Shown here piece by piece: positions 444 to 56,753 of a DNA stretch of 64,000 nt. Location of the stretch: positions 9,247-73,246 of the forward strand of contig CAMQVY010000008.1 in NCBI GenBank assembly GCA_947038405.1, given 5' to 3'. Source of the DNA: an uncultured Rikenellaceae bacterium. GTDB taxonomy: Bacteria; Bacteroidota; Bacteroidia; Bacteroidales; Rikenellaceae. Every line of letters begins with the position of its first letter. Position 1 is the stretch's first letter. The notes beneath the pieces were generated by a model that worked only from the letters and a program-made list of their open reading frames with translations, was not told the origin of the DNA and searched no databases. A program made the translations under genes and the position numbers.

Positions 444-488
444 TAAAAAAACGAGGTATTCAAAATTAATTGAATACCTCGTTTTTTC
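444..488. terminator. bidirectional intrinsic terminator between cysK and the convergent glycosyltransferase operon
   Basis: 13-bp perfect hairpin acgaggtattcaa (451-463) / ttgaatacctcgt (470-482), with an A-run on the left and a T-run on the right. Confidence 0.8.
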
Positions 489-1492
489 TATTTTAATTTA
501 AACATGACTCGATAGAGTAGATCTATTAACCAAGAGGTTTTCAGAGCTAATACTTTAACAAGTACTTTTTCCGAGCCATTGTATATATCTGCTCGTTTAA
601 GCTCTGTATAGTAACAACTATAATAGGTATTTAAAATACGACATCGCTCGGTAAATGTTTTACCTTTATAACCCCTATACATACTTTTTAACGCTCTAAA
701 TCGCCAATCTGTAACTGTATCAAAGACTTCACTACAAACTTCTCCTGTTCGACGGCTCAATTCTCTCAATTGAGTATCTGTTATATCTGCGATGTTAGTA
801 AAAGTATCATATGAGTGAGATCTCCTCGCTAAACTTACATCACAATCAAAACTATATAGATAATTAAATCTATTTATTACAGATATGTTATCGATTTTCT
901 GTATGAAACGAAAAGTTAACTCAAGGTCTTCACAAAAAGATAGACTTTGATTGAATCTCAAATTATTATCTACAAATACATCTGCTCTATATATCTTTGC
1001 CCATGTATATCCAAAAATTTTAAGTTGACGATCCAAATACGCATAGGCTTCAACAAACTCATCTTCTTGGAAGCGTCTATTTACAATCGTTTGCTCAATA
1101 CTCTCTACCCCACTCTTCAAAAGTGCAAACCCTTGAAAAATCAATCCAACATTTGAGTTAGCCTCTATCTCTGAGACATAATCCAATAACCAATCCTCCT
1201 TCACATAATCATCGCTATCCACAAATGCGATCCAATCTCCAGAAGCACGATCTAAGCCTAGATTACGAGCAGAACTTACCCCTCCATTATCTTTATGAAA
1301 CACTCTAATACGAGAATCTTTCATAGCATAGCTATCACATATATCACCTGATCTATCTGGCGTTCCATCATCAACTAATAGGAGTTCAAAGTTATCATAT
1401 CTTTGTGCCAATATACTATCAATACATCTATGGATATAGCTCTCTGTATTGTAGACAGGGACAATAATTGAGATTAAAGGTTTTAACTGCAT
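488..1492 (-). CDS. glycosyltransferase family 2 (GT-A fold), paralog 1
   Basis: 334-aa ORF with ATG start. N-terminal SIIVPVYNTESYI...LLLVDDGTPD...FVDSDD motifs match GT2 enzymes. It is the last gene of the polysaccharide operon. Confidence 0.85.
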   Translation of the reverse strand: MQLKPLISIIVPVYNTESYIHRCIDSILAQRYDNFELLLVDDGTPDRSGDICDSYAMKDSRIRVFHKDNGGVSSARNLGLDRASGDWIAFVDSDDYVKEDWLLDYVSEIEANSNVGLIFQGFALLKSGVESIEQTIVNRRFQEDEFVEAYAYLDRQLKIFGYTWAKIYRADVFVDNNLRFNQSLSFCEDLELTFRFIQKIDNISVINRFNYLYSFDCDVSLARRSHSYDTFTNIADITDTQLRELSRRTGEVCSEVFDTVTDWRFRALKSMYRGYKGKTFTERCRILNTYYSCYYTELKRADIYNGSEKVLVKVLALKTSWLIDLLYRVMFKLK

Positions 1493-1515
1493 AATGAAAA
1501 TATTTAATTATCTTT

Positions 1516-2550
1516 TTATCTCCCGGTGTTAGCTTTAAAAAGTTTAGATTTCACTTTAAACATAAGACGATAGATCAAATCTATCAATCTAGGAGCCTTC
1601 AGAGCTAAAATTTTAACTATTAATTTTTCACTACCACCATATATATCCAATCTGTTTAAATCGGAGTAATATTGTGTATAATAAGTTTTAATAATTCGAC
1701 GTCTATCTTTAGGAGTCTTATCATTTTCTAGCTCATACAACCTCTTCAACGCTCTAAATCGATGCTGTATAACTGGATCAAATATAGATTCAGAGATATC
1801 ATCTTTTCTAGTACTCAATATTTCTAATTGACTATTTGTAATATCAGCTAAATTAGAGAGAATATCATATGACTTATTAACCCAAGATAGACTACTATTT
1901 CGATCGAACGTATAAATATAATTAAATTTATTAACTACAGCTATACTATCCACTTTGTGCAGAAAACGAAGCGTAAGATCAAGGTCTTCACAAAAAGATA
2001 TATTTTCATCAAACCTGAAATTATTTTGCTGGAAAATATCTGCTCTATATATCTTAGAACATGTAAAACCAAAAATCTCAACCTTACGATCAAGGTATGT
2101 ATAAGCCTCAACAATCTCATCTTCCTTAAAAAGGATAGACTCTAAAGGTAGTCCTAAATACTCTACTCCATCTATCAATTTAATCATACCTTGATAAATC
2201 AACCCCGCATTAGGGCTCTTCTCAATCTCTCGAACATAGTCCGACAACCAACTCTCCTTTACAGAGTCATCACTATCTACAAATGCAATCCAATCTCCAC
2301 TAGCATTATCTAGAGCTAGATTACGTGCAATACTTACCCCTTCATTTTTTTTATGAAACACTCTAATACGCGAATCCTTCAGTGCATACTCATCACATAT
2401 ATCACCCGCTCTATCTGGAGTCCCATCGTCAATCAATAAGAGTTCAAAGTTTTCATAAGTTTGCGCCAATATACTATCAATACATCGATTAATATAACCC
2501 TCTGTGTTGTAGACAGGAGTAATGATTGATATTAGATTTTTTTTAGACAT
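1516..2550 (-). CDS. glycosyltransferase family 2 (GT-A fold), paralog 2
   Basis: 344-aa ORF with SIITPVYNTEGYI...LLLIDDGTPD...FVDSDD motifs. It is collinear with the neighbouring GT2 over its full length. Confidence 0.85.
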   Translation of the reverse strand: MSKKNLISIITPVYNTEGYINRCIDSILAQTYENFELLLIDDGTPDRAGDICDEYALKDSRIRVFHKKNEGVSIARNLALDNASGDWIAFVDSDDSVKESWLSDYVREIEKSPNAGLIYQGMIKLIDGVEYLGLPLESILFKEDEIVEAYTYLDRKVEIFGFTCSKIYRADIFQQNNFRFDENISFCEDLDLTLRFLHKVDSIAVVNKFNYIYTFDRNSSLSWVNKSYDILSNLADITNSQLEILSTRKDDISESIFDPVIQHRFRALKRLYELENDKTPKDRRRIIKTYYTQYYSDLNRLDIYGGSEKLIVKILALKAPRLIDLIYRLMFKVKSKLFKANTGR

Positions 2551-9707: not shown

Positions 9708-9798
9708 TAAAAAAATACGTTATATTTACGGACGATTAAAAAATGTGGAATGACTTGTACGATTGCAACCACAATAAAAAAGTGCTAAACCGCTAGTA

Positions 9799-9945: not shown

Positions 9946-11238
9946 ATGGGATTTTTATTTACATCAGAATCAGTATCTGAGGGACACCCAGATAAGATTT
10001 CAGACCAAATTTCGGACGCCATCTTAGATGAATTTTTGCGTCATGACGAGAACTCAAAAGTTGCTTGCGAAACTATGTGTACAACAGGACTTGTAGTAGT
10101 TGCAGGAGAGGTTCGTTCGGAAGCATACGTTGACATACAAAAGATCACAAGAGAGGTTATTAAGCGTATTGGTTACACAAAGAGTGATTACCAATTTGAC
10201 TACAACTCATGTGGTATTCTATCAGCTATACATGAGCAATCTGCGGATATCAACCAAGGTGTAGTAAGAGAGGTTGCAGAGGAGCAAGGAGCTGGAGATC
10301 AAGGAATCATGTTCGGTTACGCTTGTAACGAAACTAAGGAGTATATGCCAGCAACACTTATCCTTTCACATGTTATCCTTAAAGAGCTTGCAGTCATTCG
10401 TAGAGAAGAGAAAGTAATGACATACCTACGTCCAGACTCAAAAAGTCAAGTTACTATTGAGTATGATGACAATGGCACACCTCTAAAAGTACACACTATT
10501 GTTGTGTCAACCCAACATGACGACTTTATTGTTTCTGACGCATCAATGACAGACAAAGAGGCTGAGGTTGCGATGGGTGATAAAATAAAAGAGGATGTTA
10601 AGAATATTTTAATTCCACGAGTAAAAGCACGTTTAGAGAGAGCGCAAGATAAATTATCAAACCTAATTGGCGAAGAGTATATCCTTCACGTTAACCCAAC
10701 AGGTAAATTTGTTATCGGCGGACCTCATGGTGATACTGGACTTACTGGAAGAAAAATTATCGTAGATACTTATGGTGGACGTGGTGCACATGGTGGTGGA
10801 GCTTTTTCTGGAAAAGATTCATCTAAAGTTGACCGTTCAGCAGCTTACGCAGCAAGACACATTGCAAAAAATATGGTTGCAGCAGGTGTTGCAGATCAGA
10901 TTTTAGTACAACTTAGTTATGCTATTGGAATCGCACAGCCTCTAAGTGTATATGTAGAGACTTACGGTACATCTAAAATTACGGGGCTTACAGATGGTGA
11001 CATTGCTAGAAAAATTGAGAACCTATTTGATCTACGTCCTGCACATATTGTTAAGGATTTTGGATTGAAGAGCCCTATTTTCGAAGTAACAGCATCATAC
11101 GGACACTTCGGAAATAGACCATATAGTGACAAAGTCAAAGTTTGGGAGAACGGAGTAGAAGTATTACGCGAAATTGAATTCTTCGCATGGGAGAAACTTA
11201 ATGCCGTAGATAAAATAAAGGCTGCATTTAACTTTTAG
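9946..11238 (+). CDS. metK: S-adenosylmethionine synthetase
   Basis: 430-aa ORF with [36 protein letters not shown] and GGGAFSGKD motifs. Confidence 0.97.
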
Positions 11239-14373: not shown

Positions 14374-14419
14374 AATACAATCACTCTACTCGTGAGTAGA
14401 GTGATTGTATTATTTTTTT
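14374..14419. terminator. bidirectional terminator between proC and the B12-uptake operon
   Basis: Hairpin aatacaatcactctac / gtagagtgattgtatt followed by a T-run. The T-run overlaps the stop codon of the convergent receptor gene. Confidence 0.8.
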
Positions 14420-16340
14420 AGAATTTAAATGTTGCTCTTATTCGATACATTCTCAAAGGCATAGGAAAGTACTGAGTACTTTCATAATATGCATCAAATA
14501 TATTATCTAACTTCAGTGACAAACTTAATAGGTTCTTGTTCCTAATTCTAATCTGCCCACCAATTTCAGCATTATGCTGTAAATAAGCATCTGTGTAATA
14601 CTCCTCATCGGCACTAGTAAACCTAATATCTGTAAAAGATAGATTATAATTAAACCATATCAAATCCTTAAACCAAACCTCATAATTTCCATTCCATTTA
14701 TTTCTTGGAATATAAGGTAATTGCTTTCCCTGCGCATCATCTCCACGATTTGAGTTATCAACAGAGTGAGCATAACAATAGTTTCCCGATAGCGTATGTT
14801 TAGTGGTTCTAGCATCATATTTAAAACTCCAATCTAACTCTATACCTTGAGACACAACCGTACTAAAATTCGCTGGTGACCATATATAACCATTCCCCTT
14901 CGGTATCCACATTATCCAATTGTCTATGTCCATATGATAATATGTAGCCTCAAACTTCATCTTCAGACCACCTATTGATGGCTCTGAGATTATCGAAGCA
15001 TCCCACGAGAAACCTGTCTCAGGTTTAAGATCAGGGTTTCCTCCAGGATTCCAATATAGATCATTTAACGTCGGAACTTTATGGTTATAGGCATTTGAAG
15101 CCTTTAAAGAGAGAAATCTATCAATCACTCTATAACTTGCAGATACTCCATAAATAGCATATTGATCTTTATCTACACTCTCTACCGTTATATCGGCATC
15201 AATATGAAGACGCTTCGTAGCTCTGAACTTCGTATACACTCTCGCTGATACAGAATTTCTCGTCTCTTTTTCAGCTTCATATGTAGATGAAGTAACCACA
15301 TCATATCTATAATTAAGCGTAGCACCCAAATCGAAGCGTTTAAGATATAATAACTCATAATCAACTCTCGAAATTATACTATTATTAACATTTTCTGATT
15401 GGTCAGAAAATGAACCGAACTCTCTAGCATAATCAAAAGAACCATTTAGATGAGCAAATGTTATTTTATATTTATGTCTCGCCTTATTAGCACTATAACT
15501 TGCAATTGTACGTATATTTTGAGACTCCATCTGCTCTTTTGCCGTTTTTACAGATAGAGTAGATTGTGGCAATGAGCGATCGTCAAATTGCCACCAGCTA
15601 ATCAAACTAAACTTACCATCTTTTAATGTGTTATAATAAAACTCCTGCATCACCCCAGCCTGCTTATAGTCTGCCTCTTTACGCCTTTCAAAGTACGAAT
15701 CCATACTATACACCTTGTTAAGATACCTATAATCATTATCTGATTGTTGATAATATAACCTAGTTGACGAGGTAAATCTATTTTTAGATACTCTAAATGT
15801 CACACCCTCTGTAATTGTATTATTAGATCCATATTCACTTAGCAAAGAGATAGATGGCTTTTTTGAAGGAGTATCGTTATTTGTAAAATTAACACTTCCA
15901 CCTAATGCTCCACTACCCGATTGCTGGTCACTTCCACCGTGATAAAGAGATACATTATCAGTAAAATATATAGGAACTTGAGAAAAATCAAAACTACCAA
16001 TTGATGCAGAATTAATAGAGATTCCGTTCCAAAGCACTTGAGTATGGCTTGAAGATGTCCCTCGAAATGATGCCGTAGACAGAGCGCCTTGCCCCATACT
16101 TTTAATATTAATTGTACTATTATTATTTAGTAATTCAGCTAAACTTTTAGTTCTATTCTGCTCTAGTATAGCACCATCAATCCTAGTAACTTTACTTCCG
16201 ACTCTACTGTTTTTCTTCACATCAACAACAGATACATCGTCAATAAGAAATAGAGAATCTTCGATTCCTTTTTGACTAAATGCACTTTTGCCAAAGGCAA
16301 AAACTAAAACAATAACTAAAATAATGACTCTACACATCAT
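14418..16340 (-). CDS. btuB: TonB-dependent receptor, BtuB-like (predicted corrinoid transporter)
   Basis: 640-aa ORF with a signal peptide, a plug region (IDDVSVV TonB-box-like, SLAELLNN, FRGTSSSHTQVLWNGISIN) and a C-terminal beta-barrel ending in an aromatic F. It is the last gene of an operon headed by a cobalamin riboswitch. Confidence 0.8.
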   Translation of the reverse strand: MMCRVIILVIVLVFAFGKSAFSQKGIEDSLFLIDDVSVVDVKKNSRVGSKVTRIDGAILEQNRTKSLAELLNNNSTINIKSMGQGALSTASFRGTSSSHTQVLWNGISINSASIGSFDFSQVPIYFTDNVSLYHGGSDQQSGSGALGGSVNFTNNDTPSKKPSISLLSEYGSNNTITEGVTFRVSKNRFTSSTRLYYQQSDNDYRYLNKVYSMDSYFERRKEADYKQAGVMQEFYYNTLKDGKFSLISWWQFDDRSLPQSTLSVKTAKEQMESQNIRTIASYSANKARHKYKITFAHLNGSFDYAREFGSFSDQSENVNNSIISRVDYELLYLKRFDLGATLNYRYDVVTSSTYEAEKETRNSVSARVYTKFRATKRLHIDADITVESVDKDQYAIYGVSASYRVIDRFLSLKASNAYNHKVPTLNDLYWNPGGNPDLKPETGFSWDASIISEPSIGGLKMKFEATYYHMDIDNWIMWIPKGNGYIWSPANFSTVVSQGIELDWSFKYDARTTKHTLSGNYCYAHSVDNSNRGDDAQGKQLPYIPRNKWNGNYEVWFKDLIWFNYNLSFTDIRFTSADEEYYTDAYLQHNAEIGGQIRIRNKNLLSLSLKLDNIFDAYYESTQYFPMPLRMYRIRATFKF

Positions 16341-16342
16341 CT

Positions 16343-17551
16343 CTACTTAGTATAATGAATAAAATGAGGGAAAATACCACCTTTAAAATATGGCTGCTCT
16401 CGACCATCACTATCTATATAATAGTTTGCAATTGATCCTTCAGTATTATATTCAAATACCCGACCCCTCGTAAGCGATCCATATAATACGCGAATTAAGA
16501 ATATTGTATTCTCATTAGATACAGACATATGATACGAAGTCCAACGATCATCATTATTACCATGGATAATAATAGGCTCTTGTGGAGCTATCGGGTTATC
16601 AATATTTACAGCATAAATTTTTGTTCCAGAATTTACATATACTGTCTCCCCTTTAGGGCAAATATCAATCGATGATGTCCAACTATTAATTCCAGGTATG
16701 TATACCTCTTTTATGGTTTTTTCAGTAATGACATCAATACAAGATGCATTATTTGGTGTCACAACCCATAAATTACCATTTTTATCTATAGTAACTTTAG
16801 AGAAACTACACGTTGAGAAAGATTTATTGTTTCTATTAAGCACATCTCGTCTTCCTTCTGCGGTAAGATTGTCTAGATCGAAAACAGAGAATTTTGACCC
16901 TCCAACAAATAATTTATTCCCGACCAATATCATCTGAAAAGATTGGATACCAATATCTATATATCTTCTTACTTGTTTTCGACTTTTTCCATGATTAATG
17001 TCAATAATCATCAATGAATTTTGCACAGATTGGTCAGAAACAGCAATAGAGTCTCCCCCCAAATGAACCGCATACATTGGTATTACATCCCCCTCTAATC
17101 TTATAGTCTCAATAGATTTAAAAGTCTTAGAGTCGATGACTTCTACTTTTTGGGAATTATTGACAGGTATGTAGTAATAATTACCAATCTCAGCTATAGA
17201 TTGAGGAACATCACCTAATGGTCTACCGTTAATGCGTCTAAAAATATCTTGAGTCACACTACTTTTAGTAGACAACGATGTTAAAGAGCCAGTTCCATAT
17301 CCAAACTGCCCCTCTCCAACAACAATCGCCCTCACTCTCTCTGGAGAAGGTGGCGGTGGCGTTACATCTGGATCTGGATCTGGATTTGGATCTGGGTCAG
17401 GGATAGTATCAATACATGTACCATCATCTGTATCAGGAATAGTATCAGTAATAAAAGGGGGTAGATCATCTTTACTTGGCTCAATCTTAGTACAAGAGAA
17501 CACATTGACTATACATATAGTCAACAACAATAATTTTATTCTATTTTTCAT
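16343..17551 (-). CDS. surface lipoprotein, beta-propeller-like (BtuG-like candidate), paralog B
   Basis: An ATG at 17551 gives the lipoprotein signal MKNRIKLLLLTICIVNVFSC. A PDPDPNPDPDPD linker is followed by a roughly 300-aa repeat-like beta-rich region. The gene lies immediately upstream of btuB and overlaps the upstream gene by 11 nt. Confidence 0.6.
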   Translation of the reverse strand: MKNRIKLLLLTICIVNVFSCTKIEPSKDDLPPFITDTIPDTDDGTCIDTIPDPDPNPDPDPDVTPPPPSPERVRAIVVGEGQFGYGTGSLTSLSTKSSVTQDIFRRINGRPLGDVPQSIAEIGNYYYIPVNNSQKVEVIDSKTFKSIETIRLEGDVIPMYAVHLGGDSIAVSDQSVQNSLMIIDINHGKSRKQVRRYIDIGIQSFQMILVGNKLFVGGSKFSVFDLDNLTAEGRRDVLNRNNKSFSTCSFSKVTIDKNGNLWVVTPNNASCIDVITEKTIKEVYIPGINSWTSSIDICPKGETVYVNSGTKIYAVNIDNPIAPQEPIIIHGNNDDRWTSYHMSVSNENTIFLIRVLYGSLTRGRVFEYNTEGSIANYYIDSDGREQPYFKGGIFPHFIHYTK

Positions 17552-18779
17552 ATTTTCCAACATATATTACAGTAGCCTTCTCTCCGATTAACACTCCATT
17601 TTCAACTAGTTTAGACCAGCTGCCATCCTCATTATTCTCTTTATATTCAAAAATTTGTCCTGGCTTACCAAGCGTTATATTTTCAGATATGAATATAAGA
17701 TTCCCATTTTTTATGACCTTTAGGTCATTAATATTCCCTCCACGCTGATAGTGGTTAAACATAGGATCAAAAAATACCTCTTCATTTGGACTATCAACAT
17801 TGATCCTATAAAAGGCTTTATATGCCCTAATATATACATACTTCCCATCTGGACAAATTGCAGCTCCAACTGAACTAGAACCATAAATTGATGTATTAGG
17901 AATATCCAAACTTAAATCTACAGTCTCTGTATTAGGATTAATACGACATAACATTGCTCCTCCATCTGAATTCTGTAGAGTAACCCATAACATACCATTT
18001 TTATCAAGTAAGAAATCAGATAATAAACTAAATAAAGCGCTACTATTTTCTATAACTCTTAGTCCAGCAAGTGTAATATTATCTATATCTAATACCCCTA
18101 TTTTAGAAGATGTCATCTCTCCCCCCACAAATATCTTATCTCCGACTTTAGTTGCTTGAGCTGGTGAAAAGCCAATATTAAATTTTGTTTTCACAAATTG
18201 CTCTGCTCCAATATCACCAATTATAACGTTAAAAGGATTCTCAATATTTTGATTCTCTATACCAACTACGAGGACAGAGTTACCATTTAGTTGCTCTGTA
18301 TCTAGAGCCAAAATACTATCTTTAAAATCAATAGTACGCACTACTTTAAAGGTATTAGGTTCAACAACCTCTATTTTACTTTGGCTACGAGACCCCATAG
18401 TAATAAGTAATTTATCAGCCACTTGAACTGCTGAACGAGGTTCTAACCCCAAGGTTCTATTATTTACATCACTAAAATAAGTTGGAATTACCGTACCACC
18501 TTTTTTTATGTAAGACACATCTGAGAAATCAACACCTTGCGAATACCCAGAATGATTTAGCGTAATATAATCAAAATCAATAGGGTAAAAACTAGGAATT
18601 TCAGGCTCTGGCTCTGGATCAGGAGTTGGTTCTGGATCAGGAATTGGTTCAGGCTCCGGTTCTGGATCAGGAATTGGATCAGGAGTTTCAATTTCAGGCT
18701 TATCCACTAGCTCTTTTTCAGAACAGGAACTTGTGACAGTCACCACGAATAATAATAAAAATAGGAATCTTTTCAACAT
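17541..18779 (-). CDS. surface lipoprotein, beta-propeller-like, paralog A
   Basis: An ATG at 18779 gives MLKRFLFLLLFVVTVTSSC. It has a PDPEPEPEPIPDPEPTPDPEPEPE linker. Motifs are collinear with paralog B: K[IL]FVGG, DKNG.LWV, VY[IV]..., [IV]FEY. Confidence 0.6.
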   Translation of the reverse strand: MLKRFLFLLLFVVTVTSSCSEKELVDKPEIETPDPIPDPEPEPEPIPDPEPTPDPEPEPEIPSFYPIDFDYITLNHSGYSQGVDFSDVSYIKKGGTVIPTYFSDVNNRTLGLEPRSAVQVADKLLITMGSRSQSKIEVVEPNTFKVVRTIDFKDSILALDTEQLNGNSVLVVGIENQNIENPFNVIIGDIGAEQFVKTKFNIGFSPAQATKVGDKIFVGGEMTSSKIGVLDIDNITLAGLRVIENSSALFSLLSDFLLDKNGMLWVTLQNSDGGAMLCRINPNTETVDLSLDIPNTSIYGSSSVGAAICPDGKYVYIRAYKAFYRINVDSPNEEVFFDPMFNHYQRGGNINDLKVIKNGNLIFISENITLGKPGQIFEYKENNEDGSWSKLVENGVLIGEKATVIYVGKYEK

Positions 18780-18924
18780 AATAGTTGGTGTTAATAAATT
18801 AATAACATAATTAATAAATAACACTTACAAAGTAAAACTAAGGAGAAATAGCGATATGCCGGGCCCAACATACATACTACTTACCATGCTTTTTTACCCG
18901 AAGCATTTTAATAAGTATAAAAGT

Positions 18925-19065
18925 ATTTTGGCAGGTCTTCTGGCTACCTCAATTTACATGCCTTCCCATTACTATTAATAACAGTGGCGATGAATATGTA
19001 AATTTTCACGAGGATTACAGCTGCGGGTACAGCTCCGAAATCAAATCGGATTCCCTATTAGTATG
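18925..19065 (-). promoter_or_regulatory. cobalamin (B12) riboswitch
   Basis: The reverse complement reads AATAGGGAATCCGATTTGATTTCGGAGCTGTACCCGCAGCTGTAATCC...CATCGCCACTG...AATGGGAAGGC...GGTAGCCAGAAGACCTGCC. This includes a B12 box (AGCCAGAAGACCTGCC, 18930-18945) and the GCCACTG and GGGAAGGC elements. Confidence 0.88.
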
Positions 19066-19099
19066 ATATGTTTTATAACATATCTACACCAAAACGTCA

Positions 19100-19107
19100 C
19101 AAAGGTA
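19100..19107 (-). promoter_or_regulatory. candidate -7 box (TACCTTTG on - strand) driving the riboswitch-led operon
   Basis: CAAAGGTA on the + strand, about 35 nt upstream of the riboswitch 5' conserved region. Confidence 0.5.
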
Positions 19108-19211
19108 GATATAAATTTTATATCTACCATACATATATACTAAAAATATTACATGCTAATATGCTACTGTTACATAAGCTACCAACCCACACTAGTATCT
19201 ATATATCAAAC

Positions 19212-26453: not shown

Positions 26454-26461
26454 TACTTTTG
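26454..26461 (+). promoter_or_regulatory. candidate -7 box TACTTTTG for the 26483 gene
   Basis: Matches TAnnTTTG, 22 nt upstream of the ATG at 26483. This argues against the TTG start at 26459. Confidence 0.5.
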
Positions 26462-26482
26462 TTCAACTTTGTATTTAAATTT

Positions 26483-27283
26483 ATGACAAATAAGAAGATA
26501 ACAACGAATTCTAGGAATCAGAAAATAAGACTTCCATTTGAGAAAAGACCTACAGATATAGGTTCGTGGAGCTATGACCATAGGTTTGGTCTATGTATAA
26601 CGGTAATAATTGTTCTGGTAGTTGGGATAATATTTATGTCAGCGAAGATACGTGTCAAATCAGCTCAGGTTGTAGGTTTTATTTTGAATGTAACAGAGAC
26701 ACCTGTAATTATAGATGAACCTGAAGTTAAAAAGGTAGTAAAAAAGAAGATGTCTAGTGAAGATTTTGCAGATGTAAAAAATGCGTTATCTAGTGAGCAG
26801 GCAGAAATAGAGGATGAACAAACAGAACAATCTAACTCTGAATTTGCTGAGAACATTAAAAATGAGGCTAAGAGTGTCGCAAAAGGGACAAATTCAAATA
26901 GAGCACGATATGAGCAAGGGCTTCGAGAAGAACAGGCTATTATTGACTCGATGAGAAACGGTGCTAAGAAAAAAGATAGAGTCGATGTAAAAGTTAAAGG
27001 TAACGTTACTGTTTCATTCTCATTCGTAAATCCAACAAGAAAATCGGTCGAGCACGATGTCCCAGCCTATATGTGTGAAGGTGGTGGAAGGGTTGTCATT
27101 AATGTTACGGTAGACAACAACGGAGATGTTACAGCTGCTTCAGCAGACAAAAATCGCTCAACCACAGATGAATGTATAGTATCTACGGCACTAAATGCTG
27201 CTAAAAATTTCAAATTTAATGTAAACTCTTCTGCACCTCAAAAGCATCAAGGTACAATTAGTTACATATTTATTCCACAATAG
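26483..27283 (+). CDS. membrane-anchored protein with TonB-C-terminal-like domain
   Basis: It has a single N-terminal TM (FGLCITVIIVLVVGIIFM), an E/K-rich linker and a C-terminus GRVVINVTVDNNGDVTAASADKN...IVSTALNAAKNFKFN...GTISYIF that resembles the TonB_C fold pattern. Confidence 0.5.
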   Translation: MTNKKITTNSRNQKIRLPFEKRPTDIGSWSYDHRFGLCITVIIVLVVGIIFMSAKIRVKSAQVVGFILNVTETPVIIDEPEVKKVVKKKMSSEDFADVKNALSSEQAEIEDEQTEQSNSEFAENIKNEAKSVAKGTNSNRARYEQGLREEQAIIDSMRNGAKKKDRVDVKVKGNVTVSFSFVNPTRKSVEHDVPAYMCEGGGRVVINVTVDNNGDVTAASADKNRSTTDECIVSTALNAAKNFKFNVNSSAPQKHQGTISYIFIPQ

Positions 27284-27474
27284 CATTGAAAAATGAAATA
27301 TATTTTTAAGGAATCTTGAACTGAAAAAAAAGTTAATTTTAAGTGTTATTTTTTACTTATTTTGTCATTTGATTTTATTTTTTTTGCTTATACTTGCACT
27401 AAATATCTCAACACTTAAATTGAGATTAAAGATTACCTAAACTAGATATTTTATTAATTATTTTTTATAAGACT

Positions 27475-27783
27475 ATGGCAAAAGAGATAAAATCTAAGAA
27501 ACGCTTGGTTGTTAGTGCTCAAAATCTACCCGAAGAGTTACAAGCAGAACTTAAGATTAAGTACCCTGATGGGTTTAATGAACATATGATCCGTATTGAA
27601 AAGGGATTTAATGACTTTTTCTATGCTGTTACACTTGAAACAGATGAGATCAGTTACCTTGTTAAGCTTAATGTTAAGATAGATGCTCAAGTTGAAGATG
27701 ACGACAAAGACTACTATGAAGATGACGAAATTGAGGGTGCAGATGAAATTATTGACATCCCAGATGATATGGATAACGAATAG
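27475..27783 (+). CDS. small hypothetical protein with highly acidic tail
   Basis: 102-aa ORF with ATG start and its own terminator. The C-terminal third is D/E-rich (EDDDKDYYEDDEIEGADEIIDIPDDMDNE). I recognise no family. Confidence 0.55.
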   Translation: MAKEIKSKKRLVVSAQNLPEELQAELKIKYPDGFNEHMIRIEKGFNDFFYAVTLETDEISYLVKLNVKIDAQVEDDDKDYYEDDEIEGADEIIDIPDDMDNE

Positions 27784-27812
27784 TTTGAAAATATCAGAAA
27801 ACTCAAAGTTCC

Positions 27813-27864
27813 CCAAAAAAATAGACACAAATAACTTAAAAAAGTTATTTATGTCTATTTTTTA
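27813..27864 (+). terminator. terminator of the small acidic ORF (19-bp stem)
   Basis: aaatagacacaaataactt (27819-27837) pairs with aagttatttatgtctattt (27842-27860) with one mismatch. The loop is aaaa, followed by a T-run. Confidence 0.8.
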
Positions 27865-27957
27865 GTTTATCGACAAAGGCAGTTTGTTAACTAGTTTTGT
27901 TTGTGTGACGCAGGGAACTGCCCTACGCGGGCTGCGGTGCGTGATCGCACTCAACAA
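27864..27957 (+). repeat. intergenic repeat family 1, extended 94-nt unit, tandem copy 1
   Basis: agtttatcgacaaaggcagtttgttaactagttttgtttgtgtgacgcagggaactgccctacgcgggctgcggtgcgtgatcgcactcaacaa. It is 89/94 identical to 28007-28100 by hand alignment. Confidence 0.9.
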
Positions 27958-28006
27958 AAAGTCCTAGAAAACAAAGTTTTCACGAAAGTTTGATGAAACT
28001 TTTTAA

Positions 28007-28100
28007 AGTTTATCACCAAAGGCAGTTTGTTGACTAGTTTTGTTTGTGTGACGCAGGAAACTGCCCTACGCGGGCTGCGGTACGTGATCGCACTCAACAA
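28007..28100 (+). repeat. intergenic repeat family 1, extended 94-nt unit, tandem copy 2
   Basis: Same unit with 5 substitutions and no indels. It ends on the base before the mnmA stop codon (28101-28103). Confidence 0.9.
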
Positions 28101-29282
28101 CTATTTATTTATAACTCCTGAGCCTATCAATTCATCAACATCATACCACGCAGCAAATTGACCTGCGGATATACCTCTTTGAGGCTGGTCAAATAGTATA
28201 TATGCGCCACTCTCTTCGATATTAAGAGTTGCTTTCTGCAACGGTTGACGGTATCGTATTCGCACATCAAACTCCTTTGACTCTCCCAGCCCTAATGCTA
28301 AGTCCTCTCGAATCCAATGAATTTCCTCTGGAAGTATTTGTATAGCCCTTCTCTGTAATCCAGGGTGATTGTCTCCCATTCCTACATATATTATATTACT
28401 ATCGACATCCGTACTTATAACAAACAGTGGTTCTGGCTTTCCACCCACATTCAACCCCTTACGCTGTCCAATAGTATAGAAATGAGCACCATTATGTTCT
28501 CCGACCACTTTACCATCTTCAGCACAGTATGTATATGGCATTGAAAGCAGCTCTAAATCGTCTGAAACATCACTACTATACCCACTCCAACTTGCAGGAA
28601 TCTCAACAATAACACCTTTTTTTGTCTTTAGTTTTTGCTGTAAAAACACAGGAAGATCAACTTTCCCAACAAAACATATACCTTGAGAATCTTTGCGTTT
28701 TGCTGTTGCAAGTTTATTCTCTTCAGCAATTCGCCTCACTTCTGGTTTTATTATATCACCTATTGGAAACATCGCTTTAGAGAGTTGTTCTTGAGAAAGT
28801 TGACAAAGAAAATAACTTTGATCTTTATTATTATCGGCACCAGCAATAAGCTTAAACACCTCTTTTCCATCAACCATTTCACTATCCACACGACAATAAT
28901 GTCCCGTTGCAACATAATCAGCTCCAAGTTTTAGAGCTTCTTTAAGAAACACATCAAATTTAATCTCACGATTACATAGTACATCTGGATTCGGCGTTCT
29001 CCCCTTTTCGTACTCACTGAACATATAGTCTACAACTTTAGCCCTATACTCTACACTCAAATCAATACAATGAAATGGAATATCTAATCTCTTTGCAACT
29101 AGCTCTGCAAACATCTGATCGTCGTACCAAGTACACTCTCCTGCGAGTGTTCCCGTTGTATCGTGCCAATTCCTCATAAATAGAGCAATCACTTCATACC
29201 CTTGTTCTTTCAGTAGATATGCTGCAACTGAGGAATCTACCCCACCAGACATACCTATAACAACACACTTTTTATTACTCAT
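28101..29282 (-). CDS. mnmA: tRNA 2-thiouridine(34) synthase
   Basis: [26 protein letters not shown]-loop and conserved catalytic Cys regions. The ATG at 29282 is preferred because the ORF-track start 29303 is TTG and overlaps a -7 box CAAAGATA (29301-29308). Confidence 0.93.
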
Positions 29283-32479: not shown

Positions 32480-32694
32480 AATACATTATATTTATCATTT
32501 ATGCAAAGTTATAGAATTTTACGTAAAAAATTTATATTTTTGCAATCTAAATTTATAACTTTGTCGAGTTATTTATAAAAAAACTTTTAGTATAAAGTTT
32601 GATATAAACAACCCTAGAGTAGCAGCTGTGAGTGATTGCAGTTAATAAATAGAATTTATACAAAAATTATATAAATAAAATTTAGACTAAATAG

Positions 32695-33893: not shown

Positions 33894-33957
33894 AATATAT
33901 TGTGATGCAAATTAGAATTTGCTAGGTACATAAAATTTACTCCGTGAGTATCATTTT

Positions 33958-33975
33958 CGTGATCGTACTCAACAA
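33958..33975 (+). repeat. repeat family 1, 3'-half copy
   Basis: cgtgatcgtactcaacaa matches the 3' end of the family core (cgtgatcgcactcaacaa) with one substitution. It lies downstream of panD. Confidence 0.5.
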
Positions 33976-33981
33976 AAAACA

Positions 33982-35565: not shown

Positions 35566-35624
35566 ATATTATTTTCTTAATGTACTAAATTATATAATTT
35601 ATTAACTCTCATATAGTTTGAGAT

Positions 35625-35648
35625 AACTACCCTACGTGGGCGGAACAA
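35625..35648 (+). repeat. repeat family 1, 5'-half copy
   Basis: aactaccctacgtgggcggaacaa corresponds to hairpin 1 plus the terminal aacaa; the central gtgcgtgatcgcac module is missing. Confidence 0.5.
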
Positions 35649-35816
35649 TGTTAACTAAGCACTAACTATATTAAAATTGCCAACTCGACTGTTAATAACT
35701 TTGTTACAAACTTCAAGTACATCGCTGTATATTAGTTATAATATACCAATTGTACCATATCAATTTAATCCAACTAGTGAACTTAAAACAGTGTTATATT
35801 ACCTCAGAGAGCTAAT

Positions 35817-38276: not shown

Positions 38277-38426
38277 ATGTTTTGTTTTACTTCAATTATA
38301 ACGACAAATATCACCCATATCGTCAAAAATATTTATGGGCAAAAGTTACGGATGCAACATACACCCTAAAAACTTGCGAAAGATACGAAAAACTTTGCTT
38401 TTTTTTAGGGTTTTAGCAAAAAAATA

Positions 38427-38486
38427 TTGAGTGCGATCACGTACCACTACCCACATAGGGCGGCAGTACGTGATCGCACTCAACAA
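38427..38486 (-). repeat. repeat family 1 composite: two inverted 3'-arms around a hairpin-1 module; acts as terminator of the 38495 gene
   Basis: ttgagtgcgatcacgtac (38427-38444) and gtacgtgatcgcactcaa (38466-38483) are perfect 18-nt inverted repeats around cactacccacatagggcggca. On the - strand the hairpin is followed by a T-run. Confidence 0.85.
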
Positions 38487-38494
38487 ATAAATAA

Positions 38495-39847
38495 TTAATT
38501 ATCTATATATATATTTATATAAGTATTAGGCAGCTCTTTATTTAAAAGTGGCAATAACTTTCCACCGAACAAACTCCACATAGGTACATGAAGAGTATCT
38601 ATTCTTACATTAATGTCATCAGGTAAATAGTCAATAGCTCCACCTATCACTAGGTTCTTAATATGTCCGTTTTTAAATATATCTTCAGGAATCCTCCCGT
38701 CTTTAACCTCGACGAATAATTTATCTACCTCTTGTTTAATTTGAACCTCTTCTGGTGGCACTATTTCATGTACTAGCCAACCAATCTTTGGTCTCAATGC
38801 AAATGTCTCTCTATTTTGTTCTAGCCCAATAAAACCAGCCCACAACTCAATATTATACACCTCTTTAGTTAAAGCATCAAGAGCTACAACTGGGACTTTA
38901 ACTATCTCATCGGGGAGATTATTTGATCCATACAGCTCTTTTAATCCGTTTCGTTCTCCACCCTTACTATAAGGGAAAAATTTAACAATCCAACCATCAA
39001 CAACCTCTGGCTTACCATACGTTTCTAAGGTATGATATTTAAACATGTTCATCCAAAACTCTTTATCAATACTCCCTTTTGTTGTCTCTATAATCTTTTC
39101 TATTATTGGAGTGATCTCTTTTGTCCACCACTCTAAATCGTACTGAGAAAGATATTCTGTCTTTTTCAATAACTTCTCCCAATCCTCCGTTGAACCTTCA
39201 AGTGTAATATTTGGTATTCCACAACCATCAAATGATACAATATATTCAAAATACGACTTAGCACTATTCATTATAGTAATTTGTGATGCGATTTTTTCAA
39301 TCTGCGTGGTTGTCGAGAAGTTGCACTCCAAAACATTCGAGATATCTCCTTTTGTATTCTCAGAGATCTGAGTCGAAAAACGCTCTACTATCGACTCCCA
39401 ATCACAATCCTCAAGGAATCCATCTACATAAACTACCAATTCCTCTTTCCCTTCATGATCAACTAATTTACCTCTTAAATCTTCTGCATTGAAATTGACA
39501 TGATGAGAAAATCCTTGACTAATAAGTAACCATATCATATCGGGAGATATGACGAAAGGTCGATGATTCACATAAGCATTAAACATTCCATCAAACAGTG
39601 AATGATGATCATAATTCACTAACTTATTTGGAAATTCACTATGCGCTAATACATTTAACGGGAATCCTAATGAATAAGTTTTAATATCTACTCTTTTGGA
39701 TATAATTGCCCCAAATATATCAGAGGGGCTCTTTTCATCAAGTAGCTCTTTAGGCTTAGATAACTCTTCTACCTGAAAAGTTACTGACTCTTGTGCATCT
39801 ACATTAAATGCAATTATAAGAAATAACACAATAATAAAACGTCTCAT
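38495..39847 (-). CDS. secreted hypothetical protein (possibly DUF4419-like)
   Basis: An ATG at 39847 gives the signal peptide MRRFIIVLFLIIAFNVDAQ; the ORF-track start is TTG. The segment PDMIWLLISQGFSHHVNFNAEDLRGKLVDHEGKEELVV resembles my memory of DUF4419 proteins. This assignment is unverified. Confidence 0.5.
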   Translation of the reverse strand: MRRFIIVLFLIIAFNVDAQESVTFQVEELSKPKELLDEKSPSDIFGAIISKRVDIKTYSLGFPLNVLAHSEFPNKLVNYDHHSLFDGMFNAYVNHRPFVISPDMIWLLISQGFSHHVNFNAEDLRGKLVDHEGKEELVVYVDGFLEDCDWESIVERFSTQISENTKGDISNVLECNFSTTTQIEKIASQITIMNSAKSYFEYIVSFDGCGIPNITLEGSTEDWEKLLKKTEYLSQYDLEWWTKEITPIIEKIIETTKGSIDKEFWMNMFKYHTLETYGKPEVVDGWIVKFFPYSKGGERNGLKELYGSNNLPDEIVKVPVVALDALTKEVYNIELWAGFIGLEQNRETFALRPKIGWLVHEIVPPEEVQIKQEVDKLFVEVKDGRIPEDIFKNGHIKNLVIGGAIDYLPDDINVRIDTLHVPMWSLFGGKLLPLLNKELPNTYINIYIDN

Positions 39848-39907
39848 ACGCAATATTTTTAGTTGATATATGCAATGTACACATTTAAAATCTAATTAAC
39901 AAACTAC

Positions 39908-39955
39908 TGTTGAGTACGATCACGCACTACCGCCCGCGGAGGGCAGTTCGCAGGC
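39908..39955 (-). repeat. repeat family 1 core copy (reverse orientation)
   Basis: The reverse complement reads cctgcgaactgccctccgcgggcggtagtgcgtgatcgtactcaacag. It lies upstream of the 38495-39847 gene. Confidence 0.8.
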
Positions 39956-47171: not shown

Positions 47172-47242
47172 ATTAAAAACACTCTTTAATTTATTTGAGG
47201 GTTAAAGGTATAAATATTTTTTCAGTTTTCACAAACAAAAAT

Positions 47243-47299
47243 AAGAAAACGAAGTTTTCCAAAAAGTTTGAGCCACTTTTTGGAAAACTTCGTTTTCTT
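47243..47299 (-). terminator. terminator of the small OMP gene (24-bp perfect stem; nested-palindrome family 2)
   Basis: aagaaaacgaagttttccaaaaag (47243-47266) pairs perfectly with ctttttggaaaacttcgttttctt (47276-47299). On the - strand it is followed by a T-rich tract. Confidence 0.85.
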
Positions 47300-47332
47300 A
47301 TTTGAGTTGGTATAGACTAAATTATACTCCTC

Positions 47333-47779
47333 TTAGAATACATACTTTACACTCAAACCAAAATCAGTAAAGTGAAATTCTGCATCAGTTATAATGTCGA
47401 ATGCAGGCTTATAATCAAGAGAGAATGCGATAGGCACCTCAGGGATCTTGTACTCAAGTCCAACAACACCATCAATACCTAAACGAAAATTATCATCTGA
47501 ATGAGTTAAACTACCAATGTGAGCTCCACCACCATAATAGAAGTTAAATCCATTAGATATCACAGGTACATATTTCTCATACAACCCTGTAATCAAAAAT
47601 CCATTATCGTAAGGGATAGATAAAATTCCTTCAATTGCAGATGAAGCATTCATTTTATGCTTAACTGACAAACCTGAAGAGTATCCTGCAGCTCTCACTC
47701 CAACAGCCCAATTATAATCCTGTGCAAAACCTGTGTTTATTGCAAATGCCATTGCAACTAATAATAAAATCTTTTTCAT
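47333..47779 (-). CDS. small outer-membrane beta-barrel protein (OmpA-like/OMP_b-brl family)
   Basis: 148-aa ORF with signal peptide MKKILLLVAMAFAINTGFAQ, alternating beta-strand pattern and C-terminal ...SVKYVF aromatic end. Confidence 0.7.
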   Translation of the reverse strand: MKKILLLVAMAFAINTGFAQDYNWAVGVRAAGYSSGLSVKHKMNASSAIEGILSIPYDNGFLITGLYEKYVPVISNGFNFYYGGGAHIGSLTHSDDNFRLGIDGVVGLEYKIPEVPIAFSLDYKPAFDIITDAEFHFTDFGLSVKYVF

Positions 47780-48037
47780 CTTTTTAATCTTAAATTTATA
47801 ATTTATTTATGTTTACTTTATCAAATACATCTACTCTATGTGGAAAATGATATATAAAATTTCGACAGCTTGTCAAACGATATATTGTAATTATTTATTG
47901 TACTTTACTCTGTAAATATACTCGTATCTATGTATGGCAATTCTCTTGACCAAATTCATATGTGATCTCATTTGCATCAAAATATTCAGACTTATGAATA
48001 TTAATTTTCGTACATAACAAGTTAAAAAACTAAGCCA

Positions 48038-48694
48038 CTACAGCTCTAAAAGTGTACTTGCAGTTAACTCTCTAAAATCATCGACAATTAAATCGAATCG
48101 ACTTCGACTCTTCAACTCCTCTTGCGAATATGTAGTAGCCATTGCTATAACTTTCATTCCAGCAGCATTAGCAGCTTCAATACCTGCAAATGAGTCCTCA
48201 ATCACAAGACACTCTTTAGGCTTAGTATCTATCAATTTTGCTGCCAAAAGAAATACTTCAGGATCTGGTTTACATTTTGTAACCATATCTCCATTTGCAA
48301 TTGCATTAAAACAAGTTGCGATCCCACACTTCTCAAGAACAAAATTAACGTTAGCACTCTGTCCTGATGAACCAACAGCTCTTTTTATATTATTTTTTTC
48401 GAGGTCCTCTAAGAACTCAATCAACCCTGGTGTTGGTTTAATTGTCTGTTCAAAAATTTCACGATAGATCTCCTCTTTCTCATCAGCTAATGCCTCAATA
48501 CCCTTTTCATCAATAATATACTGAGGTAAAACAACTGGAAGTATCTCATCGTTTCCTTTCCCAAAGTGTTTCAACAATTCCGATTTAGATATTTCAAAAC
48601 CATATCTTCTACAGAAAACTACAAAAGCATCAATGTGTATATCTCGGTTATCAACCAATACACCATCCATGTCAAAAATTACAGATTTTATCAT
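48038..48694 (-). CDS. HAD-superfamily hydrolase (beta-phosphoglucomutase-like subfamily IA)
   Basis: 218-aa ORF with motif I VIFDMDGVLVDN, motif II VGSSG and motif IV EDSFAGIEAA. Confidence 0.85.
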   Translation of the reverse strand: MIKSVIFDMDGVLVDNRDIHIDAFVVFCRRYGFEISKSELLKHFGKGNDEILPVVLPQYIIDEKGIEALADEKEEIYREIFEQTIKPTPGLIEFLEDLEKNNIKRAVGSSGQSANVNFVLEKCGIATCFNAIANGDMVTKCKPDPEVFLLAAKLIDTKPKECLVIEDSFAGIEAANAAGMKVIAMATTYSQEELKSRSRFDLIVDDFRELTASTLLEL

Positions 48695-51896: not shown

Positions 51897-51957
51897 AACA
51901 AAAACAGAAAACTAAGTTTTCAACAAATTCTGTTGAAAACTTAGTTTTCTGTTTTTA
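51897..51957 (+). terminator. guaB terminator (25-bp perfect stem; nested-palindrome family 2)
   Basis: aaaacagaaaactaagttttcaaca (51901-51925) pairs perfectly with tgttgaaaacttagttttctgtttt (51931-51955). The loop is aattc. Confidence 0.85.
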
Positions 51958-53121: not shown

Positions 53122-53130
53122 TTTTGATTG

Positions 53131-53172
53131 AACTGCCCTATGTGGGCGGCACTGCGTGATCGCAGTGAACAA
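53131..53172 (+). repeat. repeat family 1 core copy
   Basis: aactgccctatgtgggcggcactgcgtgatcgcagtgaacaa, starting 10 nt after the stop of the 52564 gene. Both hairpin modules are intact (cactgcg tgat cgcagtg is a perfect 7-bp stem). Confidence 0.8.
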
Positions 53173-53212
53173 TGTGATTATATTACATACTATATGACGA
53201 ATTGACAACACG

Positions 53213-55409: not shown

Positions 55410-55428
55410 TTTTTTTATAGTTTTATAT

Positions 55429-55475
55429 AACTGCCCACCTCAGACACTGTTGTTCGAGGTGGGCAGTTTTTTTTG
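55429..55475 (+). terminator. htpG terminator
   Basis: aactgcccacctc (55429-55441) / gaggtgggcagtt (55456-55468) followed by TTTTTTTT. Confidence 0.85.
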
Positions 55476-55527: not shown

Positions 55528-56295
55528 ATGATTGAGAACAGATTTATAGACTTAGCGAATATCTCTTACGGAGATGTAAAAGATAATAGATACGATATGG
55601 CTATTTTACCATGGGGAGCAACAGAACCACATAACTACCATCTGCCATATCTAACTGATTCAATTCTTTCGCATGACATCGCTGTTGAAGCTTCAATTAA
55701 GGCAAACAAAGCAGAAGGTATAAATGCAATGGTACTTCCTGCAATCAATTGTGGGTCTCAAAACCCTGGACAGCATAACTTGCCATTCTGCATACATTAT
55801 AGGTATGAGACACAAAAAGCAATCCTAAATGATACAGTAGCAGCACTAAACAGACAGGGAATTACCAAACTTCTAATTATAAATGGACATGGTGGGAATA
55901 CATTCAAAAATATGATTCGAGACCTCTATTTAGAGTATCCAAACTTTTTGATTGCGACAACAGAGTGGTTTAACATAGTGCCTGTTGAGTGTTACTTTGA
56001 CGAAGATGATGATCATGCAGGTGAAATAGAGACCTCTGTAATGATGCACTACCACCCTGAATATGTAACCATATCTAATGCAGGAAGTGGAGAGTATACT
56101 CCTTTCTCGATGCAAAGTTTGAATAGTAAGATTGCATGGGTACCAAGACATTGGGATAAAGCGACAAAAGATACTGGAATAGGGAATCCAAAATATTCTA
56201 CAGCAGAAAAAGGTAAAAGATATACACACGCTGTTAGTGATAAATTATCCGAACTAATCATAGATTTATCTAAAAATAATCTATATGAAAAATAA
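55528..56295 (+). CDS. creatininase family amidohydrolase
   Basis: 255-aa ORF. AILPWGATEPHNYHLPYLTD and INGHGGN motifs are typical of creatinine amidohydrolase-family proteins. Confidence 0.8.
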   Translation: MIENRFIDLANISYGDVKDNRYDMAILPWGATEPHNYHLPYLTDSILSHDIAVEASIKANKAEGINAMVLPAINCGSQNPGQHNLPFCIHYRYETQKAILNDTVAALNRQGITKLLIINGHGGNTFKNMIRDLYLEYPNFLIATTEWFNIVPVECYFDEDDDHAGEIETSVMMHYHPEYVTISNAGSGEYTPFSMQSLNSKIAWVPRHWDKATKDTGIGNPKYSTAEKGKRYTHAVSDKLSELIIDLSKNNLYEK

Positions 56296-56699: not shown

Positions 56700-56753
56700 T
56701 TAAATTATTAGTTGTCTGTAACCACGCAGTGCAATTACATCAAATTAAGAAAT

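Follow-up and report, generated by a model that had tools for sequence, protein, structure and literature searches.

A probable REP-like mini-array downstream of mnmA and its dispersed repeat family in an uncultured Rikenellaceae lineage

To our knowledge, Proteobacteria are the group in which small dispersed repeats have been studied well; in Bacteroidota they are hardly described, and in Rikenellaceae not at all. Pneumococcal BOX elements carry a 45-nt boxB module that is repeated in tandem in variable number between fixed boxA and boxC ends. A repetitive extragenic palindrome (REP) is a single imperfect palindrome of 20-40 nt with a GT[AG]G foot at its stem, and head-to-head pairs of REPs form the long hairpins known as REP doublets forming hairpins (REPINs). 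REPs are extragenic, typically number more than 100 per genome, and go with a single-copy gene for a REP-associated tyrosine transposase (RAYT, or TnpA-REP) that is flanked by repeat copies in the same genome. In the bacterial interspersed mosaic elements (BIMEs) of Enterobacteria, REPs alternate in orientation (PMC2817692). RAYT genes of subclass 2.6 are found mostly in Bacteroidetes (PMC6006769), and the 'atypical secondary structures' that flank these genes (PMC6006769, PMC3116915, PMC2817692) are the REP sub-case nearest to the repeat described here. We analysed a pair of structured repeat units next to the tRNA-modification gene mnmA in a 64,000-nt stretch of DNA, hereafter the window, from an uncultured Rikenellaceae bacterium (GenBank assembly GCA_947038405.1, contig CAMQVY010000008.1, positions 9,247 to 73,246).

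We consider it probable that in this pair two units of a lineage-specific, non-coding repeat, similar to REPs, REPINs and BIMEs, form a head-to-tail mini-array. The family to which the pair belongs is dispersed, extragenic and present in both orientations; it forms dimers that fold as long hairpins and arrays in which spacers are amplified together with the repeat cores, and its copies are gained, lost, collapsed and decayed between two sister species. The initial annotation had described two 94-nt units that match at 89 of 94 positions without indels across a 49-nt spacer, and a direct-repeat alignment bears this out: units 27864-27957 and 28007-28100 differ by five mismatches, and they are part of a gap-free direct repeat of 100 nt (27858-27957 and 28001-28100, 93% identity, 143 nt from start to start). 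The pattern of the 44-nt core had no chance match in 100 shuffles of the window. The parts of the locus are the following, with coordinates given as positions in the window, as for the pair throughout.

27475-27783, plus strand: small acidic open reading frame (ORF) of 102 aa from the ORF list, the upstream neighbour, outside the repeat
27816-27863, no strand assigned: AT-rich inverted repeat with 22-nt arms, with an A-run before it and a T-run after it (DNA fold -15.9 kcal/mol, z = -7.3)
27864-27913, plus strand: 5' module of unit 1, consisting of AGTTTATCGACAAAGGCAGTTT (termed mod5), an AACTAG linker and GACGCAGG, supported by the recurrence of mod5 and by alignment
27914-27957, plus strand: core copy 1, consisting of GGAAC, hairpin 1 (CTGCCC-TACGC-GGGCTG), hairpin 2 (GTGCG-TGAT-CGCAC) and TCAACAA; covariance model R1 matches 27910-27960 with 72.4 bits
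27958-28006, plus strand: spacer with the AT-rich hairpins GAAAAC-AAA-GTTTTC and AAAGTTT-GATG-AAACTTT, then T-rich sequence; homologous to the spacer of an array at locus L012
28007-28056, plus strand: 5' module of unit 2, composed as that of unit 1, from the repeat alignment
28057-28100, plus strand: core copy 2, its last base adjoining the mnmA stop codon; R1 matches 28053-28103 with 68.7 bits
28101-29282 including the stop codon, minus strand: mnmA, tRNA 2-thiouridylase of 393 aa (Pfam PF03054/PF20259/PF20258, tRNA_Me_trans)

Both neighbours named at the outset were confirmed: the 22-nt-arm inverted repeat after the upstream ORF ends at 27863, directly before copy 1, and the last base of copy 2, 28100, adjoins the mnmA stop codon at 28101. 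The identity of mnmA is supported by Pfam. The inverted repeat also occurs in sister species that lack the GC-rich repeat at this position, and it is likely a bidirectional terminator common to the acidic ORF and mnmA; a terminator consensus scan misses it because it has fewer than three G-C pairs. From this geometry, both units would probably lie in the mnmA 3' untranslated region (UTR), after its stop codon and before the shared terminator, and antisense to the strand on which the element is defined, and this probable 3' UTR would measure approximately 85 nt in the one-less state (compare species B below) versus approximately 240 nt with both units. Neither the acidic ORF nor the 274-aa ORF upstream of it (26459-27283, plus strand) matched a Pfam family. 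The acidic ORF corresponds to a conserved 103-aa gene in sister species, and its position together with that of the 274-aa neighbour is kept in three related species.

The 3' part of each unit, approximately 45 nt long, had been proposed as the core of a family dispersed through the window, and profile and covariance-model (R1) searches support that proposal with nine strong copies (38-72 bits) and three remnants, which occupy 10 of the 51 intergenic gaps. All of them lie in the intergenic 9% of the window or overlap the last codons of a gene, and many, in either orientation, lie within a few bases of a stop codon. The core is 41-45 nt long, has the consensus RAAC, CTGCCC-N5-GGGCRG, (C)RSTGCG-TGAT-CGCASY(G), AAC, and reaches 56% GC, compared with 28% for intergenic DNA and 35% for the whole window. 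Its ends, RAAC at the 5' side and SAAC at the 3' side, are direct and not inverted. The sequence after it is A/T-rich and variable, without a T-run that recurs from copy to copy, and no terminator-like site was called in 27400-28300. The density in the window, nine strong copies in 64 kb, would extrapolate to hundreds of copies per genome. Besides the pair, the window holds these copies and remnants.

32601-32651, plus strand: decayed copy in the divergent gap upstream of panC (R1 38 bits, on the strong list)
33928-33978, plus strand: remnant with the 3' half of hairpin 2 and CAACAA, in the convergent gap between panD and guaA (R1 15.6 bits)
35619-35651, plus strand: remnant with hairpin 1 only, AACTACCC-TACGT-GGGCGG-AACAATG (R1 23.9 bits)
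38421-38489, both strands (38421-38471 minus, 38439-38489 plus): collapsed head-to-head dimer forming one long hairpin (-23.4 kcal/mol, z = -9.7)
39904-39954, minus strand: single copy with a terminator on one side and the start of a DUF4419 gene on the other (R1 63.4 bits)
53125-53175, plus strand: single copy 4 nt past a stop codon (R1 68.7 bits)
55415-55474, no strand assigned (R1 match on the minus strand): remnant downstream of htpG, a long palindrome of hairpin-1 arms, AACTGCCCACCTC...GAGGTGGGCAGTT, followed by T8 (-16.2 kcal/mol, z = -9.0)
56652-56702, plus strand: diverged copy overlapping the 3' end of a VanZ-like gene (56285-56689; R1 55.5 bits)
57997-58047, plus strand: decayed single copy filling a convergent gap, found as an R1 hit and by alignment with species B

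The DUF4419 gene (38495-39853, minus strand, 452 aa, no relative in PDB) is flanked on both sides by repeat copies in both species that carry the family. We rejected it as a repeat-associated gene, since it has no nuclease or transposase signature and approximately two genes flanked in this way are expected by chance in the window at a gap occupancy of approximately 20%.

We aligned 26 copies from two species to evaluate the fold. In this alignment, the two hairpins were paired in 88.8% of cells, and five base pairs showed compensatory change, the clearest being a G-C to C-G exchange at columns 28/41 in nine copies. None of 500 shuffles reached the covariation score, and slid controls were all far lower, so the covariation check proposed with the initial annotation supports hairpins 1 and 2. 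Hairpin 1 has 6 bp and a 5-nt loop that varies freely, and hairpin 2 has 5-7 bp and a nearly invariant TGAT loop. As for the five internal complementarities that had been listed for the unit, gccc/gggc and gtgcg/cgcac are held family-wide and ggcagtt/aactgcc, the complementarity between GGCAGTT of the 5' module and AACTGCC of the core, recurs in related composite units, but cgcag/ctgcg and ttgttga/tcaacaa are not conserved across the family. The suggested pseudoknot or alternative folds found neither statistical nor comparative support, and in its predicted folding the complete 94-nt unit does not stand out from shuffles (z = -0.25 to -2.2).

The conservation of hairpin 2 raises the question of recognition by a protein. 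The bases of its loop and closing pair (T33 G34 A35 T36 C37, which contain GATC) show full conservation or conservation of at least 90%, in contrast to the freely varying loop of hairpin 1, and the copies are regularly placed in extragenic DNA, as would suit binding sites of a host protein, nucleoid-associated, topoisomerase or linked to methylation, that reads the GTGATCG loop region for chromosome organisation. E. coli REP and BIME elements bind gyrase and the integration host factor IHF (PMC2817692). We nevertheless regard this reading as quite improbable, since the family occurs in a single narrow lineage, contrary to what one would expect of a general function in the chromosome, its copies are freely lost and decayed, diverged copies have a TTAT loop instead (56652, and L027 14963 in the alignment of the 24-kb gap), and no candidate protein was identified.

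To place the pair, we compared it with loci of related genomes, designated by L numbers; species A is the window's own species. A genome scan with the exact 20-nt hairpin-2 motif against one genome per species (185,579 species) gave meaningful matches only in the metagenome-assembled genome 'uncultured Rikenellaceae bacterium ERR3139993_bin.5', with 12 matches at seven loci. Because this genome is approximately 87% identical to the window at the DNA level in syntenic stretches, with MnmA 93% and HtpG 97% identical, we treat it as a sister species (species B). Five other matches were dismissed as chance: L014 has 58% GC, and L011, L013, L015 and L017 match only approximately 20-24 positions of hairpin 2. 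The next nearest relatives after species B have 70-76% protein identity, and 21 kb of the relative with a 76%-identical MnmA contained no family copy and no comparable repeat. A 24-base structured pattern found no match in the metagenomes of the Joint Genome Institute (JGI), viral contigs gave no matches, and blastn found none in plasmids. Judged from these collections, the family is restricted to one uncultured Rikenellaceae lineage.

The Rfam search suggested with the initial annotation was likewise negative for the repeat at gathering as well as permissive thresholds, Bacteroides small RNA families included: it returned only the Cobalamin and SAM-II riboswitches in the window, both away from the repeat, chance-level matches for the pair region at E <= 10, and nothing at E <= 0.01 for 19 copies in four sister-species loci. 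A full-text search of a literature library for the repeat sequence found no paper containing it.

In species B, the core stands alone, is paired head to head in dimers, or is repeated in head-to-tail arrays whose periods span 56-131 nt. The dimers lie at L016 5669-5784 and L022 366-481, and the former, as single-stranded DNA, folds into one long hairpin of -45.7 kcal/mol (z = -11.6). The head-to-tail arrays comprise three units of 131 nt at L012, two units of 83 nt and three to four of 70 nt at L018, and three units of 56-62 nt at L031; in all of these the spacers are repeated along with the cores. The 143-nt period of the window, with its core, AT-rich double-hairpin spacer and 5' module, aligns over its full length with the period of 131 nt at L012, a locus of species B other than the mnmA site. 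The limits of 94 nt drawn for the unit do not hold against this comparison, as the conserved mobile core is approximately 41-45 nt and the true period, spacer included, is 143 nt.

The same comparison suggests what the 5' module is. The mod5 motif (AAGTTTAnCGnCnnAGrCAGT) recurs at L012 (three copies), L018, L019 and L029, and the 5' module as a whole is similar to the interior of the intact head-to-head dimers (L016, ...GGGCAGTTTAGTTTGTTTCGAAAACTAGCCTGCGAACTGCCC...; also L022 366-481). We infer that the 94-nt unit may be composed of an intact right monomer and the decayed left monomer of such a dimer.

The spacer of the mnmA pair, which has been co-amplified with the core, belongs to a second, AT-rich family of palindromes, composed of GAAAAC-NNN-GTTTTC and AAAAGTTT..AAACTTTT (AAAGTTT..AAACTTT). 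Most of these palindromes look like bidirectional terminators. This AT-rich family is distributed more widely than the GC-rich core, being found also in a species with an 82%-identical MnmA (L029), and we located it at the following sites by motif recurrence.

47221-47321, strand not given: AT-rich palindromes in the window
51900-51956, strand not given: AT-rich palindromes in the window
27967-28005, strand not given: AT-rich palindromes in the spacer of the mnmA pair
L012 3596-3649, L019 6007-6060, L029 3687-3701, L031 2542 and L031 8561: AT-rich palindromes at other loci

The history of the mnmA site could be read from strains of species A. The two-unit state was found in seven independent metagenome contigs from different samples, all encoding an identical acidic ORF, and therefore the pair is not an assembly artefact. 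An isolated local duplication or an assembly artefact unrelated to the repeat family, as might be argued from the presence of only 1.7 periods and from the silence of Tandem Repeats Finder, is next to impossible as an account of the pair and is refuted by these contigs, by the nine strong copies in the window and by the homologue of the whole period at another locus in another species. Two further contigs of species A (L005 and L008) carry one unit, in a gap of 174 nt versus 317 nt with two. The L005 copy has the diagnostic bases of unit 2 almost throughout, and the L008 copy has a unit-1-like 5' end and is unit-2-like from the GGAAAC position on. These two crossover points are as expected if the two-unit array had collapsed independently, by recombination or slippage between direct repeats. 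A homologous spacer stands in the array at L012, and this, too, argues that the array, not the single copy, would be the older state at this site.

Outside species A the site is different. In species B (five contigs) and species C (87% identity in MnmA), the same terminator hairpin is retained along with the stop codon, but the 70-120 nt between these two features are unrelated sequence with no repeat copy. Because of this unrelated sequence, the composite would have been acquired in the window's lineage after the split. The mnmA array thus has one unit in some strains and two in others, and the sister species have none at the site, which contradicts the earlier description of a well-conserved two-copy unit.

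A gap-by-gap comparison of the window with species B extended this picture to the other copies. The copies at 39.9 and 53.1 kb are common to both species and about as conserved as their flanks. At 38.4 kb, species B has a full dimer and the window has a 47-nt central deletion that leaves one long hairpin, the 'double-foot' form; at 58.0 kb, one decayed copy in the window corresponds to three tandem copies in species B with a period of 56-62 nt. The copies at 35.6 and 56.6 kb occur in the window only, and copies in the gaps orthologous to window positions 24.0 kb and 19 kb occur in species B only. At 32.6 and 33.9 kb, both species retain remnants that have diverged from each other much more than the surrounding promoter DNA. 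The 56.6-kb copy (window 56600-56760 versus L031 13299-13441) supplies the last eight codons and the stop codon of the VanZ-like gene, and downstream of htpG both species have long palindromes of hairpin-1 arms followed by a T-run, which look like terminators; the one in the window (55415-55474) is a derivative of the family. Given this gain, loss, collapse and decay, individual copies are dispensable, mobile or at least copyable, and occasionally co-opted. As a separate difference between the two species, species B has an extra gene with a BACON domain (L031 3210-4658, 482 aa) between the orthologues of window 47333-47779 and 48038-48694, where the window has only a 258-nt gap (approximately 47780-48040).

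These data also bear on whether the copies act as RNA, either as small RNA genes or as 3'-UTR hairpins that block 3' exonucleases or modulate termination, with the family kept for that function. Protection of 3' UTRs or modulation of termination has been described for some E. coli REPs. The frequent 3'-UTR positions within a few nucleotides of stop codons, the retention of both hairpins with compensatory changes and the terminator-like T-run derivatives (55415-55474) are all in keeping with such a role. Two stem positions are G.T in 17 of 26 and 15 of 26 copies, which in RNA would be G.U pairs, and therefore the element would fold better on one strand. The copies, however, occur in both orientations relative to the abutted gene, with approximately seven antisense at the stop codon, SAAC end proximal, and others sense. 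Copy 2 of the pair has no terminator and runs into mnmA. The copies are dispensable, with one, two or none at the mnmA site across strains and sister species, and orthologous copies may decay faster than their flanks (32.6 kb); the poor fold of the 94-nt unit and the lack of an Rfam match point the same way. A TAGTTTTG box in the 5' module of both units matches the Bacteroidetes -7 promoter consensus, TAnnTTTG. We rejected a promoter at this position because the box is missing from the homologous L012 and L018 units and has no suitably spaced -33 element. In sum, we consider action at the RNA level unlikely.

Several other candidates were rejected as well. A small protein is contradicted by the one-copy alleles, which would break the overlapping 44-49-aa ORFs. 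The initial annotation rightly held that the pair fits neither a simple terminator nor a CRISPR array: the core has no consistent T-run, T8 being found only in derived long palindromes such as 55415-55474, and the array spacers are themselves repeated with a period of 56-143 nt, with no cas gene among the annotated genes of the window. An integron attC site was rejected on anatomy, and no tRNA or tmRNA was found.

Of the four options offered at the outset for the nature of the unit, the REP/BIME-like element is favoured by the dispersal, extragenic placement, dual orientation, dimers and arrays, and turnover of the family and by its lack of an Rfam match; a dedicated small RNA gene and a protein-binding module are less favoured. 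A miniature inverted-repeat transposable element (MITE), the remaining option, would have terminal inverted repeats and a duplication of its target site at the insertion boundaries. No terminal inverted repeats were found, the ends here being direct (RAAC...SAAC); the sole usable pair of filled and empty sites (56.6 kb) is ambiguous at its junction, and the other gains and losses are not clean. With REPs and REPINs the family shares short GC-rich hairpin repeats in extragenic DNA, present in many copies per segment and in both orientations, head-to-head dimers that form long hairpins (L016, L022 and, collapsed, 38421-38489), a lineage-specific sequence and rapid turnover. It also shares a 'double-foot' that has arisen by central deletion of a dimer (window 38421-38489 versus L016), a mechanism proposed for such forms in PMC6006769. 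It differs in that its monomer consists of two different adjacent hairpins in 41-45 nt and has no GT[AG]G foot at the stem but RAAC and SAAC ends, in that head-to-tail arrays are common, and in that no RAYT gene can be linked to it.

Other named families fit less well. As in BIMEs, the hairpin repeat is combined with other motifs (mod5 and the AT-rich GAAAAC/GTTTTC palindromes) in mosaic clusters that are amplified as blocks with a variable number of units, but the arrays here are head-to-tail and not alternating, and there is no sequence similarity. As in BOX, a structured module of approximately 45 nt within a modular, intergenic, non-coding repeat is placed head to tail and varies in copy number, but phylum and sequence differ, there are no fixed ends, and the phases of the arrays differ between the window and L012. 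With Rickettsia palindromic elements (RPEs, CGTC-tagged REPs; PMC3733652) the family has in common that a copy inside a coding end recodes a gene (56652-56702), although there is one such case here, at the extreme 3' end, and no CGTC-stem-CCA architecture. Because the GTAG foot is absent, the monomer is a double hairpin and the alternating orientation of BIMEs is lacking, we place the repeat outside the named families, as a new lineage-specific family of small dispersed palindromic repeats.

We propose the following course of events for the mini-array. A composite unit with a period of approximately 131-143 nt, in which AT-rich hairpins accompany a decayed left monomer and an intact core, would have reached the region downstream of mnmA once the lineage had split from the sister species, and the array would contract, and probably expand, through recombination or replication slippage between the direct repeats. 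For dispersal of the family, the hairpins would serve, in single-stranded DNA, as substrates of a transposase that acts in trans and has its gene elsewhere in the genome; the best candidate may be an enzyme of the RAYT type, with a histidine-hydrophobic-histidine motif and a single catalytic tyrosine (HUH/Y1). At mnmA the copies would merely lengthen the 3' UTR, any effect on the stability of the mRNA 3' end being secondary. The direct RAAC and SAAC ends might, as a speculation, be cleavage or target motifs and, because they resemble each other, might favour head-to-tail arrays.

The following observations weigh against a REP-like mini-array. Neither the window nor approximately 250 kb of related loci contained a gene for a RAYT or other transposase, as judged by Pfam and by a six-frame scan for HUH and Y...NP motifs, and Pfam searches of all unannotated ORFs of the window returned housekeeping genes only; the mobilising enzyme is therefore entirely hypothetical. 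There is no canonical GTAG foot beside the stem: G[CT]AG is present in 10 of 26 copies, 4 nt (RGAA) upstream, and other copies have CCTG, GTAT, TGAT and the like at that position. The REP families described so far show head-to-tail arrays rarely or to a negligible extent (PMC3733652). An empty site with clean borders was not recovered, as gain or loss at 27.9 kb (the mnmA site, where the exchange relative to the sister species is no clean insertion), 35.6, 24 and 19 kb comes with other sequence differences, and the junction at 56.6 kb can be read in more than one way, ACTGC being common to the filled and the empty site. The G.T pairs kept at two stem positions in most copies and the invariant TGAT loop would also fit a role at the RNA level or in recognition by a protein. 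Apart from these points, no bias of orientation with respect to replication or transcription can be claimed, the independent sites being too few.

In a further reading, possible but in our view doubtful, a REP system of Bacteroidota type, with a RAYT of subclass 2.6 or an unknown enzyme, would have the family as its cargo, and its recognition unit would be the double hairpin bounded by RAAC and SAAC. Such a system might seed head-to-tail arrays because the 3' end of the element resembles its own 5' target or foot; alternatively, the copies might be host-co-opted, dual-strand 3'-UTR regulators. If it were true, head-to-tail seeding would be a mode of spread undescribed for REPINs.

The window has other features apart from the repeat. 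A cobalamin riboswitch (18913-19108, minus strand, 93 bits) lies upstream of two DUF5074 genes (17541-18824 and 16343-17563) and a TonB-dependent receptor gene (14418-16340), and this operon is probably a locus for B12 uptake. Short in-frame tandem repeats with periods of 6 and 18 nt (17348-17414 and 18600-18696) encode linkers of the Gly/Ser/Pro type in the N-terminal regions of the DUF5074 proteins. A SAM-II (long-loop) riboswitch (9739-9798, plus strand, 57 bits) is found approximately 150 nt upstream of metK (9946-11238), the gene for S-adenosylmethionine synthetase. Two adjacent paralogous genes for family-2 glycosyltransferases (488-2550, minus strand; 70-81% DNA identity at an offset of 1058 nt) stand beside genes for a polysaccharide pyruvyl transferase and an FrhB/FdhB-like Fe-S protein, and the region appears to be a surface-polysaccharide locus.

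By itself, the family opens no new biological question. For annotation, it is a caution that hairpins and local conservation alone are insufficient to call small RNA genes or regulatory motifs. The family provides an alignable Bacteroidota example, with a covariance model, that includes singletons, dimers, collapsed dimers and head-to-tail arrays. Because it varies in copy number between strains and is gained and lost between species, it may be of use as a marker for typing strains and for testing how REP-like elements spread in Bacteroidota.

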